DNA of 62,962 nucleotides, the filler included, from Aduncisulcus paluster (lineage: Eukaryota), in assembly GCA_024181965.1 (NCBI GenBank). It is 6 parts of 6 records of this genome, joined end to end, with 100 filler letters (N's around TTAATTAATTAA, not from the genome) between each part and the next. Parts side by side here need not be neighbours in the genome. Positions count along the whole stretch, not along the records: positions 11,956 to 32,977 come from BQXS01009995.1; 5 more parts are not named here. One strand, given 5' to 3'. Below, one piece after another: positions 4,427-50,739 of the stretch. A model generated the notes under the pieces. That model saw only the letters and a program-made list of their open reading frames with translations. It made no database searches and had not been told where the DNA came from. A program made the translations under genes and the position numbers. Within the stretch, counting starts at the first letter, position 1. Each line of letters starts with the position of its first letter.

Positions 4427-4761
4427 TTGAAGACTCGGAATCGTTATGAACTCGTTTATAAGCCTTATAACCCTGAGGGTTCCATAGAATTTGGCCCAAC
4501 CCATTGAAATAATACGCACCATTCAATAAATAATGCTTTTTTTTATGGTTGTTTGAGGTGTAAGCCTCATATTTCGGTCAATTATTATTATTATTTTGTG
4601 AATAAAAAATAACAAAATTAAAGTTATTTATCAATGCATTACGATTGTTCTTCAATTCAATTGAATAAACATTTTTTGATTTTGAGGGTCAGAAAATTAG
4701 GGGAATTTCCGAATAGGGGGGGTATTTCGAAATAAAAGGGTAATAAACTTTATTAGTTAGG

Positions 4762-4871
4762 AATAAACTTTATTGCCGACCAATTTCGAAATTGACCCCC
4801 AATTTCGAAATAGCTAGGGAATTAATGAAATTGCGCAGCAATTTTGAAATTGGTCGGCAATAAAGTTTATT
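4762..4871. mobile_element. 110-bp foldback/MITE-like element with 33-bp terminal inverted repeats
   Basis: AATAAACTTTATTGCCGACCAATTTCGAAATTG (4762-4794) vs reverse complement of 4839-4871, 1 mismatch; internal AATTTCGAAA repeats; no clear TSD. Confidence 0.6.
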
Positions 4872-8025: not shown

Positions 8026-8987
8026 GATGATCGTAACAAAAAAAAAGAAAATTCCAAGAAAATTTCTATGTAATAAATCCTTGGTTCANNNNNNNNNNNN
8101 NNNNNNNNCAACCTTCTCTTCGACAGCGACTTCTTCAGCAGAGTCGATGAAGTTAGGCTTGACGTAGAAGAAGAAAGCAGCGACAGCAGCAGCGATGACA
8201 GCGAGAATCACAGCACAGACAACGTGACATTTCTTTCCACAGAGCTTGCACTTTCCACCACAGCACTTCTTCTTGGATTCCTCCTTAGCTTGTTGCTTCT
8301 TGAGCTCAGCTTCCTTCTCTTGTTGAGCTTTGAGGGCTTTCATCTCTTTCTTGGAGAGTTTCTTTTCTTTTGGGACCTTAGCCATGATGATCGTAACAAA
8401 AAAAAAGAAAATTCCAAGAAAATTTCTATGTAATAAATCCTTGGTTCATGCACGTATTTAAGCAATCACTGTTGTGATAATTTGAGTATTTGATGTTTTT
8501 TTATCAATAAATTAAAGCTTTTTCCTCGGTGGGAATCAATATTCATCCCGCCCCTAAACAATCGTTATTTTCGAAATTATAAAATTAAGATCAAATTTAT
8601 TAGGAGATTTTAGAATTATCTTTTCAGATGAATAAGTTTTTCTGATTAGATCATTCTGATTGTCATTTCTGATATAATCCGAGAAGTAAAATATAGCATA
8701 TATTTTTACTCTATGATAATATTTTTTAATATTTTGAACTATTATGTTAAGTTTTGATGATAATATTATTGTATTCTGCTCAATTCACACCCTCACAATG
8801 ATTTTGGCCAATGGCTCAGTCAGTATTGAAATGTCAGTGAAATTGAAAAGTTTATTTATCATTATGGGTTGATTTGATCCGGAAAATGTTATTAAATTAT
8901 GATTTTGAATGAAAATTGTTGTGTGAATCTTGAAATTGACTTCTTGAGTCCATAACACAATTGTAAAATATATATAATAACACAAAA

Positions 8988-9455: not shown

Positions 9456-9881
9456 TCAGATTTTCTGTTCTCGCCAATTTCAATATTTTTAAAAGACCCA
9501 TAATTTTTTTTAATGGTGATTTACATAGTAAAACACTGAAAATTAGCTGGAAGAGTTATTATAGTACAGTATTATAGTGACTTCCAACTTGGAAGCATGT
9601 TGAACATGACACTGCGAGTGAGCGGCTCAGTCTGAGCCTCATTCTCGAGTCGAGAACATCGGATGTCTTGAAATTAGGAATCAACAATTCTTAATATGCA
9701 ATAATTTCACTATTAAAGAACAAGAACGCAATAATAAATTATGGGAAATATTTTGAATTTCTGAAATTAGTTGTGGCAGTCCTGTTTTGATTACATTCCA
9801 AGGTTCTTTGATCCAATTATATATAATATTTATTTTTTTTTTTTTGACAGCTTTTTTAAAAAATAACCTTCTTAATATTAT

Positions 9882-11507
9882 ATGTCTGTAACACCCCTTG
9901 ATATAGAAACTATTGTTCCTCCTGTTAAGCCAGCTGCACGAACAAAAATTGTTGCCACGATTGGCCCTGCTTGTAACACTGAAAGCAAACTACTTGAATT
10001 GTTTTCGACTGGAGTTGATGTTTTCCGCTTGAATTTTTCTCACGGAGAATTCACTGAGAAAGCTGAAGTCATATCAATTTTGCGCAAAATTGAAGGAAAA
10101 TCAAAGAAACCGTTGACAATTATGGCTGATTTGCCGGGGCCCAAACTTAGAATATGTAAATTTGAGATGGGTCAGACTATGCTTGAAAATGGATCATTGT
10201 TCACCTTTGATTCTCAAGTTGATGTGTTGGGAACCGATAGTAGGATCGCTGTCGATTCTCCTGAGATTTTTTCAGCACTTAAAGTTGGAGATCGTATTCT
10301 TTTGGATGATGGACACATTCAAGTATCCGTTACTGAGGCATTCACCGATAAATGCGTATGTAAAGTTATTTCAGGTGGTCCTCTTAAGAATAGAAAAGGT
10401 TTTAACCTTCCTGACAGTCCATTACCAGCCTCAATTCCAACCGAACAAGATAAGGAGATTATCAAGTTTGTTCTTACCCAAGATATTGATGCCGTTGCCC
10501 TGTCTTTCGTCCAAACTCCTGATGATGTTTCACGTGCCCGTGAGCTTATTGGTGATGATTTGATGATTATTTCAAAATTGGAGAAACCCACTGCTCTTGA
10601 GAGGAAAAATCTTGAGAGCATCATTGATCTTTCCGATGGAATTATGATCGCTCGTGGAGATATGGGCATTGAAGCTGATGTTTTGAAGCTTGCATTATAT
10701 CAGAAAGATATTGCAAGCATCTGTCGTCTAAGAGGTAAGCCCTGTATTATCGCAACTATGATGCTTGATTCAATGACCAAGGCTCTGATTCCTACACGTG
10801 CTGAGATTTGTGATACTGCGAACGCCGTTCTAGATTTGAGTGATGCAACAATGCTTTCTGCTGAGACTGCTGTTGGCAAACATCCAAATCACGTTGTTTC
10901 CTTCATGGAGAGTCTATTATCCAAGACTGAGCGTTCAGACCATTGGATGCGCAACGCTTTGATGAATCGGAAACAACTCGCTCACACTGATTCTCCGAAG
11001 GAATGTGGTAGTGTTCTTGAAGATCATACTCCTGTTGGTGTTGTTCATTCATTTAGAGAATCCGACTCTCTCCTAAAGTCTGCTCGGTTAATTATTTCAA
11101 AGAAAGATCACAAATATCAGCGGGATAGGATTGCCGATTCAATGGCTCAGGCTGCTGTCCTCGTTGGAGAAGCAATTCCTGCCCGAGTTATTGCTCTCTA
11201 TGCTCATTCTCTCCGCGATGTTCAGAGAATATCTCGTTTGAGACCCAATGCTGATATTCTGGCCATGACATCAGATCAACATGTTGCCCGAGGATTGAAT
11301 TTTATGTGGGGAGTGCATCCAGTATTCATGACTAAGGAAGAGTATGGACAACTTTCTTACTCAAAGATTGTTGATGTATGTAAAACTTTCCCAACTAGGC
11401 TTCATCTTCTGAAGGACGAGGAGAAGATCGTGTTCATTGGAACAAAACCTATCGATGTGCCAAACACATATAATAGGCTCCGTATTTTAAATGCAAAAGT
11501 TGAATAA
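9882..11507 (+). CDS. pyk: Pyruvate kinase, prokaryote-type (K+-independent signature)
   Basis: 'RTKIVATIGP', 'VFRLNFSHG', 'ADLPGPKLRI', 'IISKLEKP', 'GIMIARGDMGIE', 'PTRAE', 'MLSAETAVG'. Confidence 0.97.
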   Translation: MSVTPLDIETIVPPVKPAARTKIVATIGPACNTESKLLELFSTGVDVFRLNFSHGEFTEKAEVISILRKIEGKSKKPLTIMADLPGPKLRICKFEMGQTMLENGSLFTFDSQVDVLGTDSRIAVDSPEIFSALKVGDRILLDDGHIQVSVTEAFTDKCVCKVISGGPLKNRKGFNLPDSPLPASIPTEQDKEIIKFVLTQDIDAVALSFVQTPDDVSRARELIGDDLMIISKLEKPTALERKNLESIIDLSDGIMIARGDMGIEADVLKLALYQKDIASICRLRGKPCIIATMMLDSMTKALIPTRAEICDTANAVLDLSDATMLSAETAVGKHPNHVVSFMESLLSKTERSDHWMRNALMNRKQLAHTDSPKECGSVLEDHTPVGVVHSFRESDSLLKSARLIISKKDHKYQRDRIADSMAQAAVLVGEAIPARVIALYAHSLRDVQRISRLRPNADILAMTSDQHVARGLNFMWGVHPVFMTKEEYGQLSYSKIVDVCKTFPTRLHLLKDEEKIVFIGTKPIDVPNTYNRLRILNAKVE

Positions 11508-11955: not shown

Positions 11956-11993
11956 AAAACCAATAAAATCAATTCGTTTGTTCTTTTCAGGCA

Positions 11994-12260
11994 TTATTTC
12001 TTGATTCCTAATAATTCAACATCAAATATGAGAGTGGAATCAGGTGGAATAGAATCGCCAGCTCCACGGCCCGTGGCATGGGCACCATAAACATAATCAG
12101 GATCGATTTGATTACAATCGTGGCTCTTTCACCAACACATAATGTAAGAAAGGCTTCATCCCAAACACTGATAACCATACACATTCCAACTGCAAATTCA
12201 AAAACCTACGATATCGCTTTCCATGATTGTCACATTGTCAATCTGGGGTGAAATAGCACA
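11994..12260 (-). pseudogene. FKBP-type peptidyl-prolyl isomerase pseudogene
   Basis: Manual translation: VFEFAVGMCMVISVWDEAFLTLCVGERATIVI / (5-nt insertion, frameshift) DPDYVYGA[HATG]RGAGDSIPPDSTLIFDVELLGIKK*. Upstream 'SPQIDNVTI' lies in another frame with stops. Confidence 0.85.
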
Positions 12261-12300
12261 AAGATCAGTATTAAATGTATCGGATGATCAGGATCTGGCA

Positions 12301-12340
12301 TTGGAGTTGGAGTTGGAGTTGGAGTTGGAGTTGGAGTTGG
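12301..12340 (+). repeat. (TTGGAG)n hexamer microsatellite
   Basis: About 6.5 perfect copies. Confidence 0.9.
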
Positions 12341-12492
12341 GTGGAATTAAATGGGAGAAGGAAATGTCGTGTTCCATGAAGCATCAGGGGATTAGATTCG
12401 TAGCAGTATACAGACATATATATAGCATCGTATTCCGAGTTCTTGATATCTCTGATTGTCTTGATAACCATTTGAGAAAGTATTTTCTATTA

Positions 12493-15348
12493 TTATATAT
12501 CAATGGTTGCTCTCCCTATCTCTTCTCCCTTGATATAGCAAATACACAAATGTGGACAGCATAGGACTTTCTCAATGGAATCTGGGACTCCCATGAAATC
12601 ATTGTGAATTCCCTGTCTTCTTTTCCTTATGAAAGTCGTCAGATAAGGAGGAAACACAATCAATTCAGATCCTTCACAAACCCCACAGCACTCTGCCTCA
12701 TAGTTGGGCAGCACAATAGACACAAAGACAGAATGAACGAGGGGAACTTCTTCAGGGATCATCATGTCTCGAATAAGATCATGATCATGTCCAACTGAAC
12801 CTTGGGCAGAATAATCATCATCGGAATCATCAGTGAAAGACTCTTTCAGATTAGAAGATAGAGAGTGGATATTCTCATAGAGGGCATTTTGAGAAGAATC
12901 ATCGGGAGCAGTTCTAATTTTAGATTCAGTAGGAATCATTCCTCTCTCCACACTGATCCTTTCCTCACTTATCCTTTCCTCTTCCTTTTCCTCTTCCTCT
13001 TCCTTTTCCTCTTCTCCTCTTTCTTCTTCTCCTTCCTGTTGAATAATACCTTCACATAAGCTGATATCACCTTCAACGACAACTCTACTGATAAAAACAA
13101 CGAGAGGTTTTGGAATCTGTTGTTTCCTATGATGGTCACTTGAACCAGTTCCTGATAGACTAGACAAAGGAGCTGATGATTTCACAATGTCCTGGCTCAG
13201 TGTAGCTCCTTCATTTTTGAATGCATTGATAATGTCTATCCTACTCTTCTTCTCAATATCTCTCACTTTCACAAGTTCCATTCCTATTCCATCGTATTCA
13301 ATGCACTTTCGGACAAATCTCGGTGTAAAGTCCCCATTTGGGAGGATATACTTGCTCGAAGCCCTGATCTGTCGCATTCCACTAACATCTCCACTCACAT
13401 CCCCAGTGTCTCCATCTGCACCTCCAGCCGTCCTTCTCTTCCGTTTCTCGGCATCAAGGACAACGGCTCTTCTCAGATCACCCATTTCATCCACACACAG
13501 TTCAGGTACAAGCACATCTTCTCCATCTCCAAGCTTGACTATGCTATCTCTGTGCTTGACCATAGATGGACTGTTCTGTCCAAATGGATGCATAATCCCA
13601 AGATCTACTCCTAGCTCAGACTCTGAGTGACTACGCATGAATGGCAGGTCAATATCTGTTGATTGTTTGCCACGAGGAGATCCTTCTCCTTTTCTTCTTG
13701 TATAATTTCTTCCAGTAATATCCAATTCTCCCCTCACGTGAGTACTAGTAGTATGCTTAGAGTATTGAATTGGATGCAAGAGAGAGATAGACTCATTATT
13801 ACCTATATCATCATTTCCATGTGTAGAGACGTATCCTTCTCCTTGAAGCTGCATGCGATCAAGTCTATGGCATGTCCCATCCTCTCCTTCTGCTCTATCT
13901 CCTTCTGCTCTATGTCTGGTAATATGTATAGGACCAGGTGTCTCTTCTCTCTCACTCATGTCTCTGTCTAATGGATTCCTGCCGTCACCTGAAGTGCCTA
14001 GAATAACACTCTTGGACTCACATTGCCTGATAGTTGTCCCGGAAACATATATAATACCCTGCCCGACTCCAACAATCCCGCTTTCCTTCTCTTTTTCCTC
14101 TTGCAGTCGTCTGATCTCCTCTCCTTTCCGCTGATCCTTCTCCACAAGCATCGTATACAGTGACAATGGAGGAGTGCCAAGAATAGGACTAAGGATTTGC
14201 TCTCCTATTTCTGCTCTCCTGACAGAGGGATGTTCCAGTGTACATGATCGACATCCTGTTGATATTGCCCCAATATGTGTTGATATTGCCCCAATATGGC
14301 TTGCAGAAGACTCATGTCCAACAGTGGTATGTGGTCTGCCTTTCATCCCCCCTCTTACCCTATCCAGGTCGGAATATGTTGGATTATCTTCATTATCTGC
14401 TTGCTCTTTTTCTCCTCCTTCAACTATGTGAAGAGCTATATCAAGAAATGATGTATTGGCGGTCTTTTGAGGCTCTAAGGGGGAGTATGGGGGACTATTA
14501 CATCGAGGGGAGGATGTGTGTGTATGTTTAGCTATTCCAATGGGTAATGGGCTCTCAATTGGCGATATACTCTTTCCTGAGTCACGCCTGGACCCTGATT
14601 GATTCCCCTTCATCCTTGAAAGCTGGATGGACAATGGATGGGGGGAGATCTGTTCTTGATGGTATGGAAGGGCAACATCAAGCATATCCATAAAGAAATC
14701 ACGTTGTATTTGCTCCGTTTCTTTGGGATTTGACTCTTGGTTTCCGGGTGCTTGAGTTGGTCTAGAAATCGCAGTAAATGAATGATTTGGGGGGTTTGAT
14801 TGTCCCAGCTTCTCTGATGTCATAGTAAAATCAAATTTATCACCCCCAATCGATTGTTTAGACGTTGATTTGCTTGCTTGATATAATTCTTGAAATGTTG
14901 TCGGCTTGGATTGAATTGGAGACGTTGGGGAGGTAAAAGGAATAAGTTTCTTTCTAATTTTGGTACCAGTTGAAGAAATTGGTCGTCGAATTTTTCCCTG
15001 CCTTTGAGACAAGGTCTTAAAACCTCTATTTCGACGTTTTCGAATTGGAATGGCACTATTTTCATTCATAAATGCTTGATCTTTCATAGGAATCATTTTA
15101 TCGGGTTCTATTTGTTCGATATCATCCACTATAACCTCTTTACATCTTCCAAATTCTGTTTTAGATGGTTTTGAGGTAGAAGGCATAACAGCTGAAGATA
15201 TAAATCCCGAAGAGGTTTCATGATCATCTCGATCTGATTTTTCCACCAAAGCCAGGTATTCCTTCACAATTTCATCATCATCATCACTTACATCCAACTC
15301 TTCATCCAATAAAACTTCTGAAAAAGAAGATTCTTCTATATTGCTCAT
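12493..15348 (-). CDS. Hypothetical low-complexity protein, 951 aa
   Basis: Long uninterrupted ORF; no recognisable family; short internal tandem duplications. Confidence 0.7.
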   Translation of the reverse strand: MSNIEESSFSEVLLDEELDVSDDDDEIVKEYLALVEKSDRDDHETSSGFISSAVMPSTSKPSKTEFGRCKEVIVDDIEQIEPDKMIPMKDQAFMNENSAIPIRKRRNRGFKTLSQRQGKIRRPISSTGTKIRKKLIPFTSPTSPIQSKPTTFQELYQASKSTSKQSIGGDKFDFTMTSEKLGQSNPPNHSFTAISRPTQAPGNQESNPKETEQIQRDFFMDMLDVALPYHQEQISPHPLSIQLSRMKGNQSGSRRDSGKSISPIESPLPIGIAKHTHTSSPRCNSPPYSPLEPQKTANTSFLDIALHIVEGGEKEQADNEDNPTYSDLDRVRGGMKGRPHTTVGHESSASHIGAISTHIGAISTGCRSCTLEHPSVRRAEIGEQILSPILGTPPLSLYTMLVEKDQRKGEEIRRLQEEKEKESGIVGVGQGIIYVSGTTIRQCESKSVILGTSGDGRNPLDRDMSEREETPGPIHITRHRAEGDRAEGEDGTCHRLDRMQLQGEGYVSTHGNDDIGNNESISLLHPIQYSKHTTSTHVRGELDITGRNYTRRKGEGSPRGKQSTDIDLPFMRSHSESELGVDLGIMHPFGQNSPSMVKHRDSIVKLGDGEDVLVPELCVDEMGDLRRAVVLDAEKRKRRTAGGADGDTGDVSGDVSGMRQIRASSKYILPNGDFTPRFVRKCIEYDGIGMELVKVRDIEKKSRIDIINAFKNEGATLSQDIVKSSAPLSSLSGTGSSDHHRKQQIPKPLVVFISRVVVEGDISLCEGIIQQEGEEERGEEEKEEEEEKEEERISEERISVERGMIPTESKIRTAPDDSSQNALYENIHSLSSNLKESFTDDSDDDYSAQGSVGHDHDLIRDMMIPEEVPLVHSVFVSIVLPNYEAECCGVCEGSELIVFPPYLTTFIRKRRQGIHNDFMGVPDSIEKVLCCPHLCICYIKGEEIGRATIDI

Positions 15349-15879
15349 ATTATATTTACCTTTTTCTATTCAAATTGAAATTACATGAACAATTTTGGAA
15401 CAACAATATGTTGTTCGTCCACAAAAAAGAATTTGATTTTTAATGATTGGTGGAGATTAAAAAAATATCTGAAATTATAATTCACNNNNNNNNNNNNNNN
15501 NNNNNAGAAGGCATAACAGCTGAAGATATAAATCCCGAAGAGGTTTCATGATCATCTCGATCTTATTTTTCCACCAAAGCCAGGTATTCCTTCACAATTT
15601 CATCATCATCATCACTTACATCCAACTCTTCATCCAATAAAACTTCTGAAAAAGAAGATTCTTCTATATTGCTCATATTATATTTACCTTTTTCTATTCA
15701 AATTGAAATTACATGAACAATTTTGGAACAACAATATGTTGTTCGTCCACAAAAAAGAATTTGATTTTTAATGATTGGTGGAGATTAAAAAAATATCTGA
15801 AATTATAATTCACGATTAAAACGTATGTTTATTTTGCAATATCATGAAAAGTATTATAAGAAAAATGATTAATTCCCAT

Positions 15880-16307
15880 ACTGTTTGGAAGAGCACAAAG
15901 AAAGTGGTTTGGACTCATTTTGAGAAGAGAAAACTGGATTGGCAATTGTGCCACTTTCTGTTGCTAAAGAAAGAATCAAAGAACGCTTGAAGAAGAGCAA
16001 CTATCAAGAATCATTATCAAAGAATAGGACGACAAGTTCGGCTTTTTTCAATGGTTGGAAACAACATTGGGGAATAGTATTGATGTCATTGATGCCATTG
16101 ATGTTATTGATTTGTTATTCGAGGTTCAAATGAGTTAAGCGAGGGGCAGTTGTGCCATTTTCTTAATTATTTTCAGAGAGAATGGGTGGAAACCAAGAGC
16201 AACGAATAGAACCAGAAAGTTGAGTGTTTTAAATTTGTAGCAGTATTTTAGGGAGTAGTATGGCAAATAATAAACATTTAAGTTCAGTTTTATGTCAATA
16301 AAAAGAA
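15880..16307 (+). mobile_element. Decayed transposase relic (Mutator-like?), dispersed repeat copy 1
   Basis: About 16067-16307 matches the reverse complement of about 27055-27390. Broken frames give 'WTHFEKRKLDWQLCHF' and 'LCHFLNYFQREWVE' with stops. Confidence 0.45.
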
Positions 16308-18458: not shown

Positions 18459-19969
18459 ATGAGTTTGATTGCTGGAAAATATGAAATTTTGCAATCCCTT
18501 GGTAGTGGGACCTATGGGACCGTGTACAAAGTAGAATCTACTGATAAATCAAAAAGAAACGTATGTTAATTTGAAATTTTTGCTAAACAAAGTTTTTATA
18601 AAAGCTACAAACGTAACGCCAATATATTTCTTCAATAGAAAACCTTTGCTTGTAAAGAAATCGATTATGGTAAAATGAATGATAAAGAAAAAGAACTCTT
18701 AGTTTCGGAAGTTAACATTTTACGTGAGTTAGACCACCTTCATATTGTTCATTATGTTGATCGGTATATTGAAAAAGAGAAGACTAAATTGTATATTATT
18801 ATGGAATTCTGTGGTGGTGGTGATTTGGCACAGTACATCAAGAACCACCGTGCCAAACGTCACTATGTTAAAGAAGACCGCATTTGGAATATATTTGTTC
18901 AGATTTTGATGGCTTTATATGAGTGTCATCATCANNNNNNNNNNNNNNNNNNNNAAAAAGAAACGTATGTTAATTTGAAATTTTTGCTAAACAAAGTTTT
19001 TATAAAAGCTACAAACGTAACGCCAATATATTTCTTCAATAGAAAACCTTTGATTGTAAAGAAATCGATTATGGTAAAATGAATGATAAAGAAAAAGAAC
19101 TCTTAGTTTCGGAAGTTAACATTTTACGTGAGTTAGACCACCTTCATATTGTTCATTATGTTGATCGGTATATTGAAAAAGAGAAGACTAAATTGTATAT
19201 TATTATGGAATTCTGTGGTGGTGGTGATTTGGCACAGTACATCAAGAACCACCGTGCCAAACGTCAATATGTTAAAGAAGACCGCATTTGGAATATATTT
19301 GTTCAGATTTTGATGGCTTTATATGAGTGTCATCATCATAAACCCAAGAAAGTTCTTCACAGAGATCTCAAACCAGGAAACATAATGTTGGATGAGGATG
19401 GAAAGATCAAGATTGCCGACTTTGGTCTTGCACGTACCCTTGGTCAGGAGTCTCTTGCAAAGACTACCGTTGGAACTCCTTTGTATATGGCTCCTGAACA
19501 GATCGGTAAAGCCGCTTATGATGAGAAATGTGATGTGTGGGCCCTCGGATGTGTTTTATATGAGCTCGCTGCTCTTTCTCCTCCATTCACTGCCAAGACC
19601 ACTGATTCTCTCCATGCAAAGATCAGGCTGGGAAAGTATCCTCCTCTCTCCGATAAAGTGTACTCACGGTCATTAATGGCCATAATTGACAAAATGCTCT
19701 GCAAATCGCCCCAAAGAAGACCCACAATTGGGGACTTGCTTCGCGATGCAGCCGTCCAGCCCTATTATAGGGAATATAAGGAGGCTGAGAGAGACACTGG
19801 CTTGAAGAGTCGTGAAGATCTTCTGAAACAACAAGAGCTTGCCCTAAAGAAAGAAAGGGAGCTTATTGAGAGTGAAAAGAGAGAGTTAGCTCGCAAAAGG
19901 GAAGAATTGAAAAGATTATCTGAGCAATTAGATCGGAGAGAAGCTATCTTACGAAGGAGAGGCTTCTGA
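18459..19969 (+). CDS. NEK2: NIMA-related kinase, NEK2-like; intron 18561-18638; 404-bp gap-flank duplication inside
   Basis: Exon 1 MSLIAGKYEILQSLGSGTYGTVYKV... splices (GTATGT..AATAG) to KTFACKEIDYGKMNDKEKELLVSEVNILREL. HRDLKPGN, DFG, GTPLYMAPE and a C-terminal coiled coil follow. About 342 aa after removing the duplication. Confidence 0.93.
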
Positions 19970-20134
19970 GAAGGACAATAAATATTATTTATTGAATAAA
20001 TAAAAACAAACGAACAACAACAATGATTCAGCGAACTTAAAACTTGATTCACAGCCTTTGATCGCCGATCTGCGTTTGACCCTAGTTTGAAATTCGAAAA
20101 TCCAATTTTCTCTCTGTTTGAATTTCGGGTCGCA

Positions 20135-22444
20135 ATGGTATTTTCTTTGGAGTTGAGTATGTTGTTTCACCACAAAATCATCATGATTTATTTGATTTTT
20201 TGATTCCTTAACGATTATCTTACAATCGATAATTTTATTTTTATTTTGTCTTATTTCATCTTAATTTGAACAGTTACAAATATTGTATTGAAGTTTATTT
20301 CCTTTTTTGCGACTTTATATTTTAATTCTATTCTTCCATCTGATGTTAGAGTATGGAATGAAATCATTTGGCAATTCTTGTTTGTTTTCATTGTTGAAGC
20401 CTGTAAATATGCTGCCAAACGTGTTAACGCTCGTATGACATTTATTGTTGGTCTCAACAGAGGTGATACGGGCGAAGATTTACCCGATGTTGTTACGAAA
20501 GATGAATATCTCGCTGATGATTCCAAACCTGATACGGGCGAAGATTTACCTGATGATGTTACAAAAGATGAACATCTCGCTGATGATTCCAAACCTGATA
20601 CGGGCGAAGATTTACCCGATGATGCTACTAAAGATGAACATCTCGCTGATGATTCCAAACCTGATACGAGCGAAGATTTACCCGATGATGCTACAAAAGA
20701 TGAACATCTCGCTGATGATTCCAAACCTGAACAAACTGGTTCAACCACTGAAAAGAATGAAAAAGATTATATTCTCGTAAAAGTCAAGATAACCAAACAG
20801 AGAAACGCCATGACGGCTTCAATCGGTCATTTATACGGTGCTGCCACTGCCCTTGTCCTCTATGCTTTGATTGCAGGCTCCCAAATAGGTCTACAATACC
20901 TTGCGAAGGTTGTTCCCAAGAAGATTGTTAAGAAATACCTTCTCTGGGCTTTCCGTCGTCCCGATGTCCCCTTTGGAGTTGGTCTTAAGCTTGAGATTGT
21001 CTTTGGAAGCATAATTTTAGAGAATATCCTCAATTTCTTCTATTCTTACTATTCTAAACTTGGTATTGACTGGTCTGTCATGATATCTAGGATTGTTGGC
21101 ACTGGGGCCAGGGTTGGGATTGTTTATTGTGCCCACTGGTTACATAATAATGACCTTTCCAAGCTTAGACGACTTAAACTTGACTCAGAATCCATGATTA
21201 TCTCCCTAAGTTCCTGTAGTTACCTCATCTTCCAGCTTGTTATGGCTCTTGTGTTGTTCTTGTGCCATTTCAAACACTTCAAATCCCAAGCCAAGTACGT
21301 CAAAGATGATTGCATGATGAGTGGGTTCAGTAGGTTTGAAATGACTGAAAAGCAGATTGCCAGAGCTGGCCCTGAGGCCGGAACCATCAAGAATAACTTC
21401 AAATACCTTCTTCCAAAGGGTATATTAAAGTCTGCTGTGATGCGTATTCCAGAATTACCAATGCTGTTTATCTCTCTCAAATTGCACTTATCCATCGGTG
21501 ATTCCAACGCCAGCAATGAGAATGAACAAGTGTTTGCTCCCCTTCGTCTAATGTTGATGGCACAGACCTTTGTGTATGCTTTCAAGAATGTTGCAATTGA
21601 TCCGTTGTTGCGCAAGCTTCAGTGGAGTGTGTATGAACGAATGGAACACATTAAGACACCCGAGAAGGCTTCTGTCTTTGCTGCGTCTGTTTGCCGTCGT
21701 CTTGTGGGACTGTCGTTTGGCCTTATGCTCCTTCCTTCCCTTTCTATCCCCATATCACACTTGATTGGACCTCTCTCTTTCGTTTTATTCAACAAGATAT
21801 TCTCCAATGAAGAAATTGTGATGCATTACGTTCATTTAATGATAACAATCATTCCATTTATTCGTTATTTATTCACATTCATGTGCCTCTCTTCAATAGA
21901 AGAAGCTGTGTATTATGTATCCGAATATTTCAAGGTCCTCCAGGCCAAGAGAGTATCATTACTCACACAAACACCAAAGAGCATTCGTAATTATTTCAGA
22001 CTTGGAATGCCTGGTGTGTGTTCTGTATGTGCCGTCATTTGCATTGGCATGACCTTGTATTTCATTGATATGCTTGATTCAGATACATTTAAACCGATTG
22101 AAGTCTACGCCACATCCATGCACTTGTGTGCCATTACAATGGTGGGATATTTCATGATAATGCTCTCTTCTGCAAGCGGTCTCGTATCTCATTTGACTAC
22201 TCAGTTATACAAACCATTTATCACTATATTTGGAACATGTCTGTTGTTCTGTGTTGGATTATTCGTTATTAATTGGTTTACTTTTGGAATGAGCAATGTA
22301 TTTGGGAAGGGAATAAGGTTTATTATTAGTATCACTGACTTTAATGATACTTATCTTGCAATGGCTTGTTTGTCAGGCCTGTTCGTATGTGGAATTGCCG
22401 CAATGTTCTTTTACAAAAGATTTCTCCAACCTCTGACTCAGTGA
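20135..22444 (+). CDS. RFT1-like multi-pass membrane protein (MOP flippase superfamily); intron 20157-20273
   Basis: ATG 20135 plus a GTATGT..AACAG intron gives MVFSLELITNIVLKFISFFATLYFNSILPSDV...FIVEACKYAAKR, resembling the Rft1 N-terminus (..LFLSREAFRRA); many TM helices. Confidence 0.6.
20464..20730 (+). repeat. In-frame 66-bp tandem repeat x4 (DTGEDLPDDVTKDEHLADDSKP)
   Basis: Four near-identical units inside the RFT1-like ORF. Confidence 0.95.
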
Positions 22445-22644
22445 TAATGATTATCAGATAATCAATGGCATGATAAAATAAATTATATTGTGCCACAACT
22501 CAGTTGTCAACTGGCTGCCGCAGCCATCGCCAACATCACTGAATCAGTCACTGATAACTTGAGATCTATCGTGCTCACAGTTGTGAGTCACAACAAATTA
22601 ATGATATTTATTCCAATCAAAAAGAGGATGACTCAAAAGAAAAA

Positions 22645-24574
22645 CTAATCCCGTCGTGCTTCTTCTTCTTCTTCTTCTTCTTCAGAAGATGAAGTATCAG
22701 CTTGAGTTGCCCCCATTTGAGTCTGAGTACCACCCATTTGAGTCTGAGTAGCCCCCATTTGAGTCATCCCCGTTGCAATAAACACTTTGGGTGTATCTCT
22801 TAACACCTTTTCCCTTGCGGTCTGTGTTCGAGAAGGTGCACCTGATGTTTTATCCTTGTCTTGTTTTTTCTCAGAATCTATATATAAATCCCTACGATCT
22901 CCTCGATCTCCTGTGATACGCTTTACCATCTCCACTATCCGCTCGTTCCAGCATACTCTACGTCTGCACTGAGGACATTGGGTATCAACAAGAGAGAGAG
23001 AGGGGATAAGAGGAGGAAGAAGAGGAGGAAGGCGAGTGGAAGAGGAAGAGGAAGAAGAGGAGGAAGAGGAAGAGGAGGAAGAGGAGGAAGAGGAAGAAGA
23101 AGAGGAATGTTTAAAACTCAATCCATGAGCACATTTTGATCTATACGATTTGTTTGATTGGTATCTATAGGCTAAATCAATGGGTGGATTTGAATCGTAA
23201 GCAGACGTTGAAGTTAAAGAAGTCTGCTCAGACGTAGAATATTTCTCTTTGATCTCTCTGTCTTGTTCCAAAAGATAATACCGGGCAATACAATGAAGAT
23301 GAGTCAAAAGAGAACAATGGGGACACTGCGAGAACGTGTGTGTCAACGGAAGGAGACAAATCGAACACACAAGCTCGGAAGAAGATCTTTCGGCCGATTC
23401 TTGACTCTCCACGGATGATGAAGTTGAAGCATGAAGGGGAACAATACAAGGAGTTGCAGGAATGCTGCAGTCAAATTCATCAACACAATATTCGTCATCG
23501 TGGCTTGCTTTTGAATGGGAATATCTCCTTTTTGCAGAGAGCTTTGATTTTTTTGTTGATATCGCTGTTTGATGGCCGCTGGAACACTTTGACGTTGGAG
23601 GAATTGAACTGTGCTTTCTTGTTCCTTCCCGTTTGGACATAGATATTATCCTTTCATCAGGATCTGACAGGGAATCACACCGGTAATGCGACTCCTCGGA
23701 GCTGTCATCACTGCCTTCAACACCAAGATCCCATTCTCCATCATCTTCATCACTGTGGTCATCTTTTTGATTATAAATGACAATTCCACTGCCATCTTTC
23801 CCGCGCCGACGTGTTACGGTGAGAAACGAACACATATCGAGTGGAACCCTTGAGAAAGTGATCGTGGCTGGTAATGGGGGATATAATACATCTCCGACTC
23901 TAAATTGTTTCCCAATATAACCTCCAACACTCATTGTCTCAGCATAAGTCCAATTTACATTCAAAGGTTGAACGTTCCACTGGGATTTACGGAGAAGCAA
24001 TCCAAGAACAAACATGTGGAAACGAATACTCTTGACAAAAGAATGCTGTGGAATATAATCCTGAACATCAGCAACTTTCGCTGGATGCTGCCATTGCCAC
24101 TCAAATTGAAGAGCTGCTGTTCGACAGGAGAATCCACTCACAAAACAAACCATTTTCCAAGGTCTTTTCCTTTTGGTCTTTCTAGCACCTTGTTTTATCT
24201 CACCATTATGTTGGCGAATACGNNNNNNNNNNNNNNNNNNNNTGGAAACGAATACTCTTGACAAAAGAATGCTGTGGAATATAATCCTGAACATCAGCAA
24301 CTTTCGCTGGATGCTGCCATTGCCACTCAAATTGAAGAGCTGCTGTTCGACAGGAGAATCCACTCACAAAACAAACCATTTTCCAAGGTCTTTTCCTTTT
24401 GGTCTTTCTAGCACCTTGTTTTATCTCACCATTATGTTGGCGAATACGTCTTCTTGGATTAATTGTAAATCCAATGTAACACTGATTGTGGAAGCGAGGA
24501 TGTTGAGAAACGAGGCAATATACACCACAAAACCCATTTAGCCCAGAGAAAGACCTGGCACCCTCACTTTCCAT
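22645..24574 (-). CDS. SLX1: Structure-specific endonuclease SLX1 (GIY-YIG + RING), split by a 226-bp gap-flank duplication
   Basis: 'GVYCLVS...[34 protein letters not shown]...[12 protein letters not shown]'; C-terminal CSIC..CPHC..HLHC..CPQC. About 567 aa after collapsing the duplication. Confidence 0.93.
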
Positions 24575-27054: not shown

Positions 27055-27390
27055 TTCTTTTTATTGATATAAAACTGAACTTAAACCTTTGATATTGTAT
27101 ACTGTACTATACTGCAATTATTCCCCCTTCGAATGCTTGTTGTTGCTTGTTATTGTTTGTTGTTGTGTGTCAATGATATCGTTTGTTATTTGCCATACTA
27201 CTCCCTAAAATATTGTTACAAATTTAAAACACTCAACTTTCTGGTTCTGTTCGTTGCTCCTGTTTTCCACCCATTGTCTCTGAAAGTAATTGAGAAAATG
27301 GCACAACTGCTCCTCGCTTAACTCATTTGAACCTCGAATAACACATCACTGACATCAATAACCTCAATGGCATCAATACTATTCCCCAAT
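27055..27390 (-). mobile_element. Dispersed repeat copy 2 (inverted relative to 16067-16307), with a ~95-bp insertion
   Basis: Shared sequence, e.g. TTGCCATACTACTCCCTAAAATA...GCTTAACTCATTTGAACCTCGAATAAC. Confidence 0.7.
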
Positions 27391-34407: not shown

Positions 34408-34814
34408 ATGATCCCTGTTGGAGATGGAGCGAAAAAAAAAGACTGGTTTGAAACTNNNNNNNNNNNNNNNNNNNNTCCCATATCTCTCCAGATAATAACG
34501 AATCATGTTTATGGGCAATTTCTTTTTGTTCTATATCAAATATTCGTTTCTTTTTTTCCTTTTCTATAACTTCTTTTTGCTCCATTCGATATTTAGCAAC
34601 GGTTTTTGGTTCACCTCGCATCAATGATTGTTCTTCCCTTTTTTTGCTTGCTTTTGCAGCAGTGTCGAGAATTTCTGCCAATTGGAGTACTTCCATATGA
34701 TCCCTGTTGGAGATGGAGCGAAAAAAAAAAGACTGGTTTGAAACTTTCAACGAATGCAATCAACTCTTTTGATGAACAGCTTCGTTTTTGTTGTGATATG
34801 AAAATATAAACAAA

Positions 34815-36685: not shown

Positions 36686-37628
36686 ATATGATTTTGTTTG
36701 CACCCCGTTTTTTTCCTTCTGCACGAATCTTGTTTGCTAAATTTTGGAATTTGCATAATTTTCGTTTATAATTGCAAAAATTAATCCTTCTATACCGCCT
36801 TGAGAAAGAATAACTCTTTTGTTTCTCTCAAACTTCCTGTAACATATCAATAGCCCTTTTTTGCGCTGTTTTAGATCTAATTTAAAATGATTTCACTTGA
36901 TGGGGAACAGTTATGGGAGGAGTAATTGTCTTTGGCCTTGTAATCAAAACAGAACCATTTCGATCTGCTTGCCACAGTCTTGTCATATTTTTGTCGTCAT
37001 TTCCTCCTTGAAACTCACTTCATAGTCGCATATTGTGGTGATATTGTGGTGAAAATTATCACATTGTTTAATTATTATTTGCAGGAACTGAATCTTTCGA
37101 ATGATCATGAATATGAAATTCTTCATCTCCTGTCCAGCTTCATATTGAATTGGATGGATGTTATTTATATCGAAATTGCACACGAACATTTGGTTTTAAG
37201 ACTGTATTTTATAAAATAGGACTTCTTATTGAAATTTGTTCTATTTTTAGAAAATCTATTTTTAGAACCTCTCCTCCGTAATCGCGCGAAATTACCCTAG
37301 ATATGGAAGATTTGTTGTTTTTAATTGTTTATTGGCTGCATTTTGTTGTGCTCTCATCAAATTCTTTCCTCATCGGTCCTATTTTCAGTAAATCCACATT
37401 TTTTGAATTTGTTTTCCTCTCAGATTCTGACCTGACCCAGTTTCAGAAGAGAAATGGTTCTCAAAATTACATAAATAGCCACGAATTGCAATTTGTTAAA
37501 CGAAGGATTTCGTATTGATTTCCATGAAGTTCATTGAATGAACAGAAAATAAATCTTCATGAAAGTTTCTTCAGACTCTGGATTCCAGACAAAACGAGAT
37601 GTATAATTAAAATAGCTATTTATTAATC

Positions 37629-40600
37629 CTATAATTTGAATCCACTCACCTTTCCCCTCAATAACTCTGTAAATGCCTTGCTTTCTCTTGAATGAATGGA
37701 ATATTTCACATTATAATCAGAATACCTTCTCTTACTCCGTTCATGAGACAAAGGAAGAGATTCCTCTTGAAGTTCGTGAATTATAAGAGAGGCTTGATCA
37801 ACACGACCAGGATATGGAGAATGGGTAATGGAAGAAATTGAATCAAATACGCTTGGACTCGAAACACCTTCTATTTCTCCGGTTCTTTCTTCTTCCAATC
37901 CAGAAATTGGGGAGAACTGGGGGAAGATTGCCGGAAAAGCAAATAAAGACGATCGAGGGAGATATTTCGGATCTTTATCCTCAACAAAGAAATATTGGTC
38001 TGGAAACGAGAGTGATTCTGTGGATTTTGGAGGGAAAAGAGGGAATTTCTCATCACAAGAATCCTCACTGAGATCCTCCTCAAAACATAGAAGATCATCA
38101 AGAACAGCCTTCTCGTGAATACGGATATCCCGTTCGTTCTTTAGATAATAAAACCGACGTTTAATCCGATTAAGAATTATATATTCCAAAAATAGATCAG
38201 TAACATGTTTTAAATTGTCTTCAGATCCTATATTTCTATTCTTAGAAAGTGAGAATGAAGCAACCTTTAATTCCTGTGAGGAATCAGATAACGGAATGGA
38301 TTCGAAAGATTTCTCTTTCATAACGGTTGTTTTGAAAATGTCAATGTATTGAACACTTTTTTGTTCTTCTCCTTCTTTTTCAAGAGAATTTGTTATAATT
38401 GATTTCTCAACCGATTTATCTGAAATCGGAATCGAATCGTTTTTCGCCTCCTTAACAGTGTCTTCAAAGATATTCAAAGCAGATGATAACGGTTTTGGAG
38501 ACATTCCAATACTGGTTGTCGATTCAAGGTCTTTTCTCGAGGATTGTACAATAAACACCTTTTTATCATGTCTTATTGGCTTTGAAATGGTTACCTTTGG
38601 TTTGGATGTTTCTTGAACAACACTGACTTCTCGCTCATCAGAATCCATTACATTTACAATCAATGATTTAGAAATATCGGCTGAATCTTTCGATTTTGTA
38701 TCAATATATTCTGGACCATTGCTCTCAAGTTTCTCTTTGGCAAGTTTCTCTTTGGCAAGTTTCTTTTGAGATCGCATTTTCATCCATTCAGCCATTTCAG
38801 TGTCAGAATCGACAATCCTCCGATCTCTCCTCTGCTTGGGTGTTTCCTCACTCTCTTCTTTTTTGGAGTCCGATATCGTTGAATCATTAGTAGGCTGAGG
38901 GATTACAGCAGAAGCAGAAGAACTCGGAAAAATACGAGAATATTCAGTATCAGAATTCGTAAAAGATTGGGACGTTGTCGATTTCTCTTCTTTCTCAGTT
39001 TCAGTCCCAAAAATAGAACCAAACATGGAGGAAGATGCCCCATCAGAGACAACAGAAGAAAAAATTGAATGAGTTGGGTCAGAATCTTGAGGAATAACCC
39101 CAAATAACCCCATTCCCCTTTTTGAATCAGTCACAGAAATTGAAGTTNNNNNNNNNNNNNNNNNNNNCGTTGAATCATTAGTAGGCTGAGGGATTACAGC
39201 AGAAGCAGAAGAACTCGGAAAAATACGAGAATATTCAGTATCAGAATTCGTAAAAGATTGGGACGTTGTCGATTTCTCTTCTTTCTCAGTTTCAGTCCCA
39301 AAAATAGAACCAAACATGGAGGAAGATGCCCCATCAGAGACAACAGAAGAAAAAATTGAATGAGTTGGGTCAGAATCTTGAGGAATAACCCCAAATAACC
39401 CCATTCCCCTTTTTGAATCAGTCACAGAAATTGAAGTTGAAGGTGACCGTATATTATTCTTTTGGCCAAGAGATTCATATTTTGGAGGTTTCGAGAGATT
39501 ATCTTTCCTTTCGTATTCCTTTAGTTCTTTCTCAATTTCTATATCAGGAGAATATGAAGAAGATTCCTCATCGTTTCCTTTTTTCTCACCTTGAAATTCG
39601 GTGAATTTCTGTATACGATCCGGAATACTTTTAAGATTAAGACTGATGCATCGAATAAATTTTGGAATTTTAGCATTCTCACCACGCCAAGACACCTGAG
39701 AAAATTCCTCTTGTTTTGAGAAAGTATTAAATTTAGAAATAACATTTACCATTCCACAGTGGGAATGATCCCCTGCCGATTGATGTGCTGGCTGTCCCTG
39801 TCCGCTTCTTTTCTTCTGATTATACTGCAAGTGGTAGAAACAAAAACTTATACTTGAATGCATTGATCGAGTGTGTTCCTTAGGTTTTGTAAGGACAATT
39901 TTCTTTCCACCAAGGGTATCGGAAGTGATCTTTGAATGTAATGACATTGCCAATGCTTTCAGCGATTCGGGAGAGAAAGCTGTGTGAGACAAAAGGGAGT
40001 CAAGTACATCCAACCTGGGAGGAGGGGAATCTTCCTTAAAAGATAATGATATCGCTTGTTTCATCGAGGCACAGGCCTCTAAGGATGGGAAGACACAGCG
40101 GCCATTCTCGTTGGTAACAGCGTATACATGACTTTTGGGATAATACTTTGAAATGGATTGATGAGAGGTTGAGGGGTCAAATACTTTCTCGAAAATACCA
40201 TATAAATCTAAAAATAAACTTGCGTGGGATGATGGACAACTCGCTGGATCATTTTCAGCCCCATATTTCGGTTTGACAAGATCACAACCACCCTCCTCGC
40301 GACAAGAGATGTGGGGATGCCCATAAGGGAGTGGATTAAGCATCAAAAGACGACTTAGGGTATCAGCTTTTAATAAATGAGGATAAAACGGCAAGGATTG
40401 CGTATTTGGAGGTTCTTGTGACTTCTTCATCCTGTCTTGGATTGACCCGATGCTCCACACCATCGATGCTCTAAGTCTCGTAACAGCAGGCTCAAGAAGG
40501 CAACAAGCAGGCACACTGAACTTAAACTTATGGATGAGATTCACTAGAGAATATAGATCATGACTGTCAATGTACATGACAGCCTGGAGAGCAGCAGCAA

Positions 40601-47463: not shown

Positions 47464-47709
47464 TATATTAATAATATGTCATATTCAATATGATATTTGA
47501 AATATCAATAGCAATACTAGTAAATTAGTAAATATTGATATTTATCGATTAAAATATATTTTTTGCTGAAGTTTATTCGCTTCTTAATCCTGTTCAGTTT
47601 TTTGAATAGAGTTGTTAGCCGAATAAGCAAAATCAATCACAATATTCTCATATTTGTGACCGGAGTTTTTTGATTATACAAGATTTTTGTTTCTTTTTGA
47701 ATATTAATA

Positions 47710-49686: not shown

Positions 49687-49786
49687 NNNNNNNNNNNNNN
49701 NNNNNNNNNNNNNNNNNNNNNNNNNNNNNNTTAATTAATTAANNNNNNNNNNNNNNNNNNNNNNNNNNNNNNNNNNNNNNNNNNNN

Positions 49787-50691
49787 GCACGAAGTTTTTG
49801 ACAGAAACCACAAGAATCAATATGTTTCTTGCACCTTTCTCTTAATCTTGGGATGTATAACTTCATGGTTCTAATGTATTCCATCATTTTGTTGATTCCA
49901 ACATGATTGGCAAAGACATTGTCATGGGCTCCTCTCTGGGTGCACTCCCAGACTGCGTGGTTAGAATAATTACAGAACGGGCATCGAGGTGGGGAGCGTG
50001 GCTTGGGAGTTCTCTGGGCTTGGGGTGCAGTGAAATATTCATTAGGATGTCTCGGTGTTGGGCCTGATGTGGCTCTGTATGGCATAGTCGAGACTGGCTG
50101 AGAACTTGGCACATACATTGGCACATAAGAGCGTAATTGGTGACCCACAGGTGGGACTGATTGTGGAACTGGTTGTGGAGCTTGTGTGGCAGTGAAGGAC
50201 CCACTATGATATCCTGACAACACTAGTGGAGCTGGAACATCATCCCAGCTCTTCATAGCTTTGGCTTTGGTTCCATCACTTGGGGCTGCACTTGTGATAC
50301 CCATGAGTTGGTCGTGGTGAGCCTTGTAATCAAGGGCACCTCTTAAACACAGGTTTACGTATGCCTTCACGTCGTCCAAGGCTTCTGATTGGAGCTGAAA
50401 GTCACCAGTGGGGCGATATCCTGGACTTCGAGCCACTTCAACGGCTCTCTGGACCCTCTTGGTGAATGGCACTGGGCCCAGGTTTCTCACAAACAAATCA
50501 ACCATATCGCGATGGTGTGTAGGGCTATTTTTGATGATTAACCTATGCTCTTCGCATAGTTTGGTCCATTCATAGCAATACGTTAAGATTTGTGAGGCAG
50601 AGATGGATTGGCCGGTTGATTGGCACTTTATGACCTCTAATTTAGCAAGGAGGTTTGGTATAGTTGGTGCGGGGCTCTTCGGTATCTTCAT
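49787..50691 (-). CDS. Gag-like protein of a second retroelement (truncated by contig end)
   Basis: CCHC zinc knuckle 'CPFCNYSNHAVWEC' after a Pro/Gln-rich linker; ATG 50691 lies just downstream of a putative LTR. Confidence 0.65.
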
Positions 50692-50739
50692 CTTTGGAGT
50701 CCTTTGGAGCGATTGGTGCAGATTCGACAGTGTCAAATT

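Follow-up and report, generated by a model that had tools for sequence, protein, structure and literature searches.

In hAT chemistry the first nick is made one base into the flank, and the palindromes that arise in V(D)J and Transib-RAG reactions are even and lack an offset base. The palindromic insertions reported for the hAT element Ac/Ds are centred on the complement of the element-adjacent base, with arms of up to 20 nt in yeast, where 66 of 140 footprints had arms of at least 3 nt (PMC5873905). Several DDE enzymes, among them 'a subset of retroviral integrases', reportedly form flank hairpins, and in V(D)J P nucleotides and Transib-RAG a flank hairpin opened off centre gives a palindromic addition (PMC5499845). 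One-step creation of hairpins by template switching is also documented, a single event (four-point, or Ripley-type quasi-palindrome) inserting the adjacent reverse complement so that a hairpin-capable repeat results (PMC5453318, PMC8794818). On a larger scale, switching at replication forks is described to give direct-inverted-direct products, the ODIRA-type inverted triplications arising by two leading/lagging template switches (PMC10766183), and snap-back synthesis in SD-MMEJ yields templated inverted insertions at repaired breaks which extend repeats (PMC5728401). Many genomes contain more short perfect palindromes than expected, and arguments about their origin usually rely only on the sequence as it is today.

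The palindrome described here can be polarised, since an intact gene and sister copies preserve the ancestral letters, and it can be placed in an order of events. It was found in Aduncisulcus paluster, a little-studied free-living relative of Giardia, within a stretch of 62,962 nt which was analyzed as a whole (the window) and which consists of draft scaffolds joined by N44-TTAATTAATTAA-N44 linkers. The original prediction held it to be a hAT-type excision footprint in an FKBP pseudogene, and its minus-strand reading of the site was confirmed directly from the sequence, 12083 to 12064 being GCCCATGCCACGGGCCGTGG with GGT before and AGCT after. The site contains the following features.

12064-12083, minus strand: the 20-mer GCCCATGCCACGGGCCGTGG, which replaces the ancestral 8-mer GCCCGTGG with a net gain of 12 nt (the four codons HATG), laid out as direct, inverted, direct
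12077-12083, minus strand: GCCCATG, which is the first copy of target bases 1-7, in direct orientation and with a G>A at 12079
12069-12076, minus strand: the inverted templated core CCACGGGC, exact reverse complement of the ancestral 8-mer
12064-12076, minus strand: a perfect 6+1+6 palindrome, CCACGG G CCGTGG, formed by the inverted copy and the re-copied CGTGG and counted among the 69 odd palindromes of the window

With the ancestral 8-mer GCCCGTGG numbered t1 to t8, the 20-mer is t1 to t7 (G>A at t5), then CCACGGGC, then t4 to t8; a parse with seven inverted letters followed by t3 to t8 is equally valid. The arms GCCCATG and CACGGGC flank a centre C at 12076, the complement of ancestral base 8 (G), and form with it a 7+1+7 palindrome with one mismatched pair. 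The predicted string (7 nt, the complement of base 8, the inverted 7 nt and CGTGG) therefore fits with one mismatch, while the perfect 6+1+6 palindrome running from 12076 to 12064 is an addition to it.

The site resembles Ac/Ds footprints in that the centre complements the joint base, partial direct copies of the target lie on both sides, and the arm of 7 is within the yeast range (PMC5873905). It differs from them in lacking any known element, transposase or occupied site, in fitting several target lengths and in lying within a multiplied pseudogene fragment; also unlike Ac/Ds footprints, most palindromes in the window have no flanking direct copy. The single-base centre separates it from V(D)J and Transib-RAG products. 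The direct-inverted-direct layout is that of the inverted triplications, also named DUP-TRP/INV-DUP. ODIRA-type events, however, span kilobases and use pre-existing short inverted repeats (PMC10766183), whereas the event at 12064-12083 spans 20 nt. Templated inverted insertions of the SD-MMEJ type require primer repeats and a loop (PMC5728401), neither of which is evident at this site.

The host sequence is an FKBP_C remnant in two frames, both pieces matching Pfam FKBP_C (PF00254) just over the cut-off of 21.1 bits. The prediction of an FKBP pseudogene was to this extent correct, but only residues 47-109 are present, and the remnant is one copy of a repeat family and not a lone pseudogene.

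12107-12202, minus strand: FKBP_C piece in frame A, FEFAVGMCMVISVWDEAFLTLCVGERATIVIK, corresponding to residues 47-77 of the intact relative P0002, with 27 of 31 identities
11994-12104, minus strand: FKBP_C piece in frame B, DPDYVYGAHATGRGAGDSIPPDSTLIFDVELLGIKK plus stop codon, with 32 of 37 identities to P0002 and one 4-residue gap
12105-12109, minus strand: 5-nt insertion AAATC, which puts FKBP_C profile positions 66 and 67 into different frames

The frame A piece (21.8 bits at 12107-12199) covers profile positions 36-66 and the frame B piece (22.2 bits at 11997-12104) positions 67-94, so that the frame break sits exactly between two adjacent profile positions. Translation of 12202 to 12107 in frame A gives FEFAVGMCMVISVWDEAFLTLCVGERATIVI(K), and that of 12107 to 11994 in frame B gives (I)DPDYVYGAHATGRGAGDSIPPDSTLIFDVELLGIKK followed by the stop. 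There is no intact reading frame for the full domain, the two pieces being in different frames and split by the 5-nt insertion, the placement of which slides by up to 3 nt, as far as 12108-12112. The remnant comprises only the C-terminal 63 codons of FKBP (residues 47-109), is 86-87% identical to the intact 109-aa protein, and reads V-W where FKBP has a conserved G-W. Residues 1-46 of P0002 had no tblastn match anywhere in the window. An ORF at 12274-12471 was considered as the FKBP N-terminus and dropped, since no database protein shares its words and residues 1-46 of P0002 are unmatched in the window. The remnant lies 38 nt from the end of the scaffold which spans 11956-32977.

P0002, an intact FKBP1A-like protein of A. 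paluster of 109 aa, was the best database relative. Its tblastn alignment to the remnant showed a single 4-residue gap exactly at HATG, and the frame-breaking 5 nt were absent from it also. A further search restricted to the short length class yielded P0010, a 39-aa A. paluster protein annotated 'hypothetical, partial', which has a 316-aa gene model (P0011) as cluster mate. Both begin with SHDCNQID, which is how the sequence ahead of the 5-nt insertion translates out of frame, so that they represent sister copies of the decayed fragment at the site. All three of these close relatives read YGA----RGAG without HATG, as the predicted derived insertion requires, and P0002 has YGARGAG and not GAHATGRG, which upheld the proposed ancestral codons. 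Four further FKBPs read YGARGAG, YGERGAG or YKDRGAG at the same place and lack the extra residues. GAHATGRGAG occurred in none of 10 database matches (9 of 91 candidates in one search, 1 of 1 in another).

To examine the same site in DNA, contigs from two runs of one sample (X1 and X2) were compared with 11956-12500 at 80% likeness; this may be the sample from which the assembly of the window was made, in which case the contigs confirm the letters but are not independent biologically. One X2 contig fits to +12069 and continues with GCACCATAACCATAAT, which on the gene strand is ...GGT TAT GGT GCC/CGT GG (the slash marks the joint), and three site-bridging contigs (record 2 of X1, records 11 and 12 of X2) lack exactly 12 letters. 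Since the contig end reads GGTGCC/CGTGG and three contigs are without the 12 letters, the proposed ancestral GGT GCC CGT GGA GCT is correct. The 12-nt insertion is real, derived and in frame. Observation and ancestral reconstruction in the original prediction were thus confirmed, whereas its mechanistic claim was partly supported.

In 200,000 trials for each of three compositions, a random 12-mer matched the reverse complement of ancestral sequence lying within ±30 nt over at least 8 nt with P = 0.0024-0.0087 (adjacency to the template not required), and the 8-nt inverted match of the real insert directly adjoins its template. The longest direct match of the insert is 4 nt, which ruled out tandem duplication as the source of the 12 nt. 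Given the rare inverted match and a direct match of only 4 nt, the insert is an inverted templated copy of its own flank and not a product of slippage or chance, and the event adds a new case to a known type of mutation, the inverted templated insertion. It could be argued that this is an ordinary indel which is palindromic by chance, or a selected lengthening of an FKBP loop, as the insertion is in frame, adds four codons and lies at what we take to be the position of an FKBP surface loop. Chance would have to produce the 8-nt inverted match (P 0.002-0.009) before adjacency is considered; the lengthened peptide was missing from all ten database matches; and selection on the protein is implausible because the host is a frameshifted fragment without its N-terminal half. 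We regard this reading as most improbable and close to refuted.

No microhomology was visible at the switch points of the 12-nt insert. The G>A at +12079, a later change in the original prediction, is not private to the copy in the window: no other letter was listed there, at a 5% threshold, among insert-bearing contigs, and the substitution is therefore either older than the spread of these copies or part of the event itself. At +12082 a G>A is carried by 16979 of 24991 depth in X1.

The contigs place the remnant in a multi-copy setting.

11956-12468, no strand assigned: repeat-family stretch with many variants, one end being the scaffold end at 11956 and the other boundary lying near 12459-12468
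12291-12338, no strand assigned: hexanucleotide microsatellite (GGAGTT)n, inside the repeat unit and upstream of the FKBP fragment

The 545 nt were matched by 1098 contigs in X1 (307 at a likeness of 99+, 430 at 95-99, 317 at 90-95 and 44 under 90) and by 280 in X2. Summed depth, which is not copy number and was taken only as a sign of very many distinct variants, was 115k-1.16M over most of 11956-12468, save the bin of the insert and the microsatellite, which reads skipped at 12286-12346 (hence the coverage gap at 12298-12335). The locus-unique contig at 12469-12500 had a depth of 1.4k in X1 and 388 in X2. Among the contig ends listed, ten leave the sequence of the window at +12459 with a common continuation. 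P0011 and an X2 contig end at 12005 represent copies whose ...ELLG runs into sequence resembling that from 12383 onward, which indicates that the repeat units are at least partly tandem or rearranged. No second copy was found in the window, where blastn gave only matches of at most 31 nt at E values of at least 0.34, and the upstream flank of other copies had no match there with up to 3 mismatches.

In X1 the depth on the 12-nt insert was 42,318 at +12072 and +12076 and 24,991 at +12082, with neighbouring bins at about 284-310k. The 5-nt insertion, by comparison, was left out in one X2 contig (depth 3994 of 20983) and in none of the 361,623 depth of X1. The nearby frameshift of the original prediction, AAATC at 12109 to 12105, is real, being missing from P0002 and from that X2 contig. 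Because P0010 and P0011 carry the frameshift peptide without HATG, and given these depths on both insertions, the 5-nt frameshift is family-wide and older, and the 12-nt insert marks a sub-lineage. The order of events is accordingly that an FKBP fragment acquired the 5-nt frameshift and multiplied, that the 12-nt insert arose in one lineage, and that this lineage multiplied further. The 12-nt insertion would have happened once, other copies, that of the window included, having presumably inherited it.

To set the site against the rest of the window, perfect palindromes were counted and compared with 100 first-order Markov simulations per 2-kb block. Odd palindromes (one-base centre) with arms of 6 numbered 48 (18.2 expected), those with arms of 7 numbered 17 (4.9 expected) and those with arms of 8 only 2 (1.3 expected), so that there is no excess over 7-nt arms. 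Even palindromes were enriched less than odd ones, with 25 observed and 14.9 expected for arms of 6, and 10 and 4.4 for arms of 7. For arms of at least 6 outside ORFs of 150 aa or more, 45 odd palindromes were observed with 12.5 expected, and 26 even ones with 10.7 expected; inside such ORFs the figures were 23 and 13.9 (odd) and 7 and 11.5 (even). The predicted enrichment in non-coding DNA was therefore borne out. C or G stood at the centre of 15 of the 17 7+1+7 palindromes (binomial p 2.7e-5 for a G+C content of 38%), while the simulations gave 1.95 such C/G-centred palindromes per window and a maximum of 7 in 300; for odd palindromes with arms of 6 the centre was C or G in 26 of 48. By manual count the outermost arm base was C or G in 7 of the 17 7+1+7 palindromes, i.e. 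without bias. The non-coding DNA of the window thus contains an excess of odd, C/G-centred palindromes of 13-15 nt.

Palindrome chains were present at 4705-4871, 9581-9656, 19976-20003, 22442-22594 and 47465-47562, in the first of which inverted copies alternate and the arms measure 45-50 nt. Of the 138 palindrome sides in the window, 10 kept an adjoining direct copy of at least 3 nt, which makes the arrangement direct-inverted-direct. A dispersed 210-nt repeat pair (16066-16275 and 27181-27390) was aligned for polarised indels and had none in the shared part. A search of the literature on intergenic palindromes in Metamonada returned nothing relevant, and in the body text of the short published announcement of the Aduncisulcus genome repeats and palindromes go unmentioned.

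We favour, with a confidence that we would put at about even, a transposon-free cause, namely an erroneous strand switch (a 'U-turn') by DNA synthesis in the course of replication or break repair. Synthesis would have run through target bases 1-7 (GCCCGTG) and then turned round, the opposite strand would have been copied from base 8 to 1 (or 8 to 2) to give C CACGGG(C), and the original template would have been resumed three or four bases behind the departure point (CGTGG...), leaving the direct-inverted-direct arrangement. The single G>A at a CpG may have come after the event or along with it. The same kind of process may lie behind both the odd palindromes of 13-15 nt and the longer chains of inverted repeats in the non-coding DNA of this genome. 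The derived state of the insertion and its exact 8-nt reverse-complement match adjoining the template both argue for this, as does the evidence of a general inverted-copy process in this genome, where odd palindromes are in excess and chain arms reach 45-50 nt, far beyond short footprints; in addition no transposon signal was found in the window. We infer both the enzymology and the non-involvement of a mobile element.

We have to admit that the strand switch has features that fit less well. By our own derivation it has the four-point order 3-4-1-2 on either strand, with the return point behind the departure point, and among the high-confidence events of Loytynoja and Goldman, 794 from human-chimp and 90 from human-human comparisons, none is reported with point 4 before point 1 (PMC5453318). 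The copied fragment of 8 nt is also below their strict limit of 14 nt, 2->3 fragments under this length being treated as noise-prone although convincing short cases exist (PMC5453318). Template switching does not predict that centres should be odd, that they should be C or G, or that arms should be limited in length, while the window shows all three, and a fixed-geometry enzyme is the more natural account of odd, C/G-centred palindromes limited to 7-nt arms. The lack of visible microhomology counts against copying with a fold-back as well, and the absence of a transposon rests on 63 kb only.

The hAT-type excision of the original prediction is the principal competitor, and we consider it doubtful and less likely than the copying error. 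In this account a flank-hairpin element inserted in the progenitor copy, duplicated its target and was excised, leaving on the left flank a hairpin with a one-base offset. Opening of this hairpin about 8 nt away from the tip would have given an end that was then joined to the second target copy, trimmed or not. The letters agree with one mismatch, the published Ac/Ds signature is the same as that of the 20-mer (PMC5873905), and an excision of this kind would naturally produce a direct-inverted-direct arrangement. The odd centres in the window and the stop at 7-nt arms suggest a fixed geometry. Metamonads are reported to be without Ku and DNA-PKcs, although A. paluster is outside the set of that paper (PMC8516963), and this absence makes long, unusually opened hairpins conceivable; for the same reason unusual break processing is plausible under either the hAT or the switch model.

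It had been proposed that a centre base complementary to the ancestral base would distinguish the two mechanisms. Such a palindrome, centred on the complement of the joint base, is present at 12076, but the same 20 letters result if synthesis switches strands after t7, copies back from t8 to t1 and resumes at t4, so that the test cannot separate hAT excision from a strand switch and the feature is not diagnostic. The next-base rule, applied to other palindromes, gave the predicted base at 7 of the 10 sides with a direct copy; these were mostly reciprocal pairs of overlapping palindromes, which makes this support nearly circular.

Several searches bear on the presence of an element. No hAT, MULE, Transib or other cut-and-paste transposase domain was detected in the 33 pieces and ORFs scanned in the window, none of 502 TIR-like pairs there had a flanking duplication of at least 5 nt, and the contig forms listed comprised only empty and footprint-like forms, with no element-occupied site. 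The published Ac/Ds rule and the fit of the letters stand beside a lack of transposon evidence in the 63-kb window and the listed contigs. The target length is also ambiguous: the first target copy at the joint keeps 7 of 8 bases (one substituted) and the second 5 or 6 of 8, and although an 8-bp target had been assumed, a duplication of 5 or 6 bp with an untrimmed right flank fits equally well. A symmetric 8-bp target preference would predict C or G as the outermost arm base, in contrast to the 7 of 17 seen. Footprints explain the palindrome chains poorly, to which the original prediction had extended them, as the adjacent direct copy is kept at so few palindrome sides (10/138) and inverted chains with arms of 45-50 nt are not footprint-like. 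Finally, two events, insertion and excision, would be needed in the master copy before multiplication.

An intact Ty3-like element with a target duplication of 5 bp is present in the window. A hairpin-capped break might also be made by another DDE enzyme or a structure-specific nuclease, opened off its tip and joined without classical end joining, with no resident element involved. This would account for a loop-less, odd-centred palindrome as well as hAT excision does while making a resident element unnecessary, and one may speculate that the 5-bp target duplication of the Ty3-like element corresponds to the length of the re-copied CGTGG. The match in length may be a coincidence, however, and such an enzyme has no evident link to the C/G centres; we consider this explanation unlikely.

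Snap-back synthesis of the polymerase-theta type would have a resected 3' tail fold on itself, extend and anneal across the break. Inverted templated insertions are its known product (PMC5728401), and alternative end joining has been reported in some Ku-less metamonads (PMC8516963). It needs a pre-existing inverted primer repeat and leaves a spacer loop (PMC5728401), whereas here the whole right arm is new and a single-base centre replaces ancestral base 8. Inspection of the ancestral letters, without computation, revealed no primer repeat that could template C CACGGGC, and this form of end joining appears quite improbable as the source of the insert.

Taken alone, the insertion is minor and its mechanism ambiguous. 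Combined with the excess of odd, C/G-centred palindromes of 13-15 nt across the window, it provides a concrete, testable handle on the underlying process, be it transposon footprints, replication U-turns or unusual break repair. We would tentatively entertain, as a possibility, that this fornicate lineage, belonging to the metamonads and thus to a group reported to be without classical end joining, runs a hairpin-type mutational process of fixed geometry which turns 7-8 nt of flank into loop-less odd 7+S+7 palindromes (S being C or G) and, by iteration, into inverted chains in non-coding DNA. If that were true, the FKBP-fragment family would offer many polarisable copies for event-by-event measurement, and the insertion at 12064-12083 would be the first dated product. 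Among the odd palindromes with arms of 6, those at 15325 and 15653 are an assembly duplicate pair.

The FKBP fragment, a decayed C-terminal remnant on the minus strand, is a member, together with approximately 260 nt upstream (window 11956-12468), of a repeat family that has a very large number of variants. The 545 nt at this repeat were covered by 1098 contigs of sequencing run X1, in which the summed depth of the repeat exceeded that of the unique flank by a factor in the hundreds, and the scaffold end itself falls inside the family. The sister copy P0011, a 316-aa A. paluster gene model annotated as a tRNA 4-demethylwyosine synthase-like protein, has an N-terminus consisting of MESDI followed by SHDCNQIDPDYDYGARGAG...ELLG and then TDASWNMSRS. 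The start of this model corresponds to an out-of-frame copy of the repeat fused to sequence resembling the window from 12383 onward, and P0011 is probably a chimeric gene model. Considered together with a loose contig end at window 12005, it points to tandem or rearranged units of the FKBP-fragment repeat.

By inspection, the 5-nt frameshift insertion of the FKBP fragment sits within a quasi-palindrome that pre-existed (window 12101-12112), with the ancestral letters CGATT GT AATCG and then ATCGAT. The fragment's two indels, this one and the 12-nt fold-back insertion, are therefore both at hairpin-capable sequence.

Palindromes of 15 nt, with two 7-nt arms around a single base, numbered 17 in the whole window against 4.9 expected. 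The centre was C or G in 15 of the 17, and the centre triplet was A-S-T or T-S-A (S, C or G) in 13.

Examples of palindromes of 7 + one base + 7 nt
1746-1760
4456-4470
9581-9595
9642-9656
22442-22456
22580-22594
37529-37543

Longer inverted structure was observed in one intergenic chain.

4705-4871, chain of alternating inverted copies, intergenic

Its 50-nt arms are 74% complementary and its 45-nt arms 89%, with palindromes of 13-15 nt nested inside, as if a single unit had been folded back repeatedly. Another palindrome chain (22442-22594) is adjoined by an ORF at 22645-24363 whose gap-cut N-terminus matches the GIY-YIG nuclease domain. A perfect even palindrome of 20 nt, TCAATTTTGCGCAAAATTGA, is present at window 10074-10093 within the pyruvate kinase ORF, where it encodes SILRKIE; approximately 0.1 even palindromes of this arm length are expected per window, and no obvious change in the length of the pyruvate kinase protein was seen at this site.

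All seven 20-N gaps were bordered on both sides by 206-300 nt that were 100% identical.

20-N gaps in the window
8089-8108
15486-15505
18935-18954
24223-24242
34456-34475
39148-39167
54073-54092

The gaps appear to be false, their ends having been duplicated, and ORFs and repeats spanning them are thus counted twice.

Retroelement sequence was identified at two locations.

50876-55591, complete Ty3-like LTR retrotransposon
49735-50736, integrase zinc-binding domain (Integrase_H2C2) in an ORF at a scaffold start

The two 95-nt LTRs of the complete element read TGTGG...CCACA, its target duplication is 5 bp long (TCCCG), and its single 1461-aa ORF comprises protease, RT, RNase H and integrase. 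Because both LTRs are identical, a recent insertion is suggested. The ORF at the scaffold start is a partial, second retroelement copy.

A dispersed repeat pair of 210 nt in inverted orientation was also present on one scaffold (16066-16275 and 27181-27390; 92% identity, no indels), and five tandem units of 66 nt (20398-20793, up to 95% identity) fall within a 718-aa ORF at 20288-22444.
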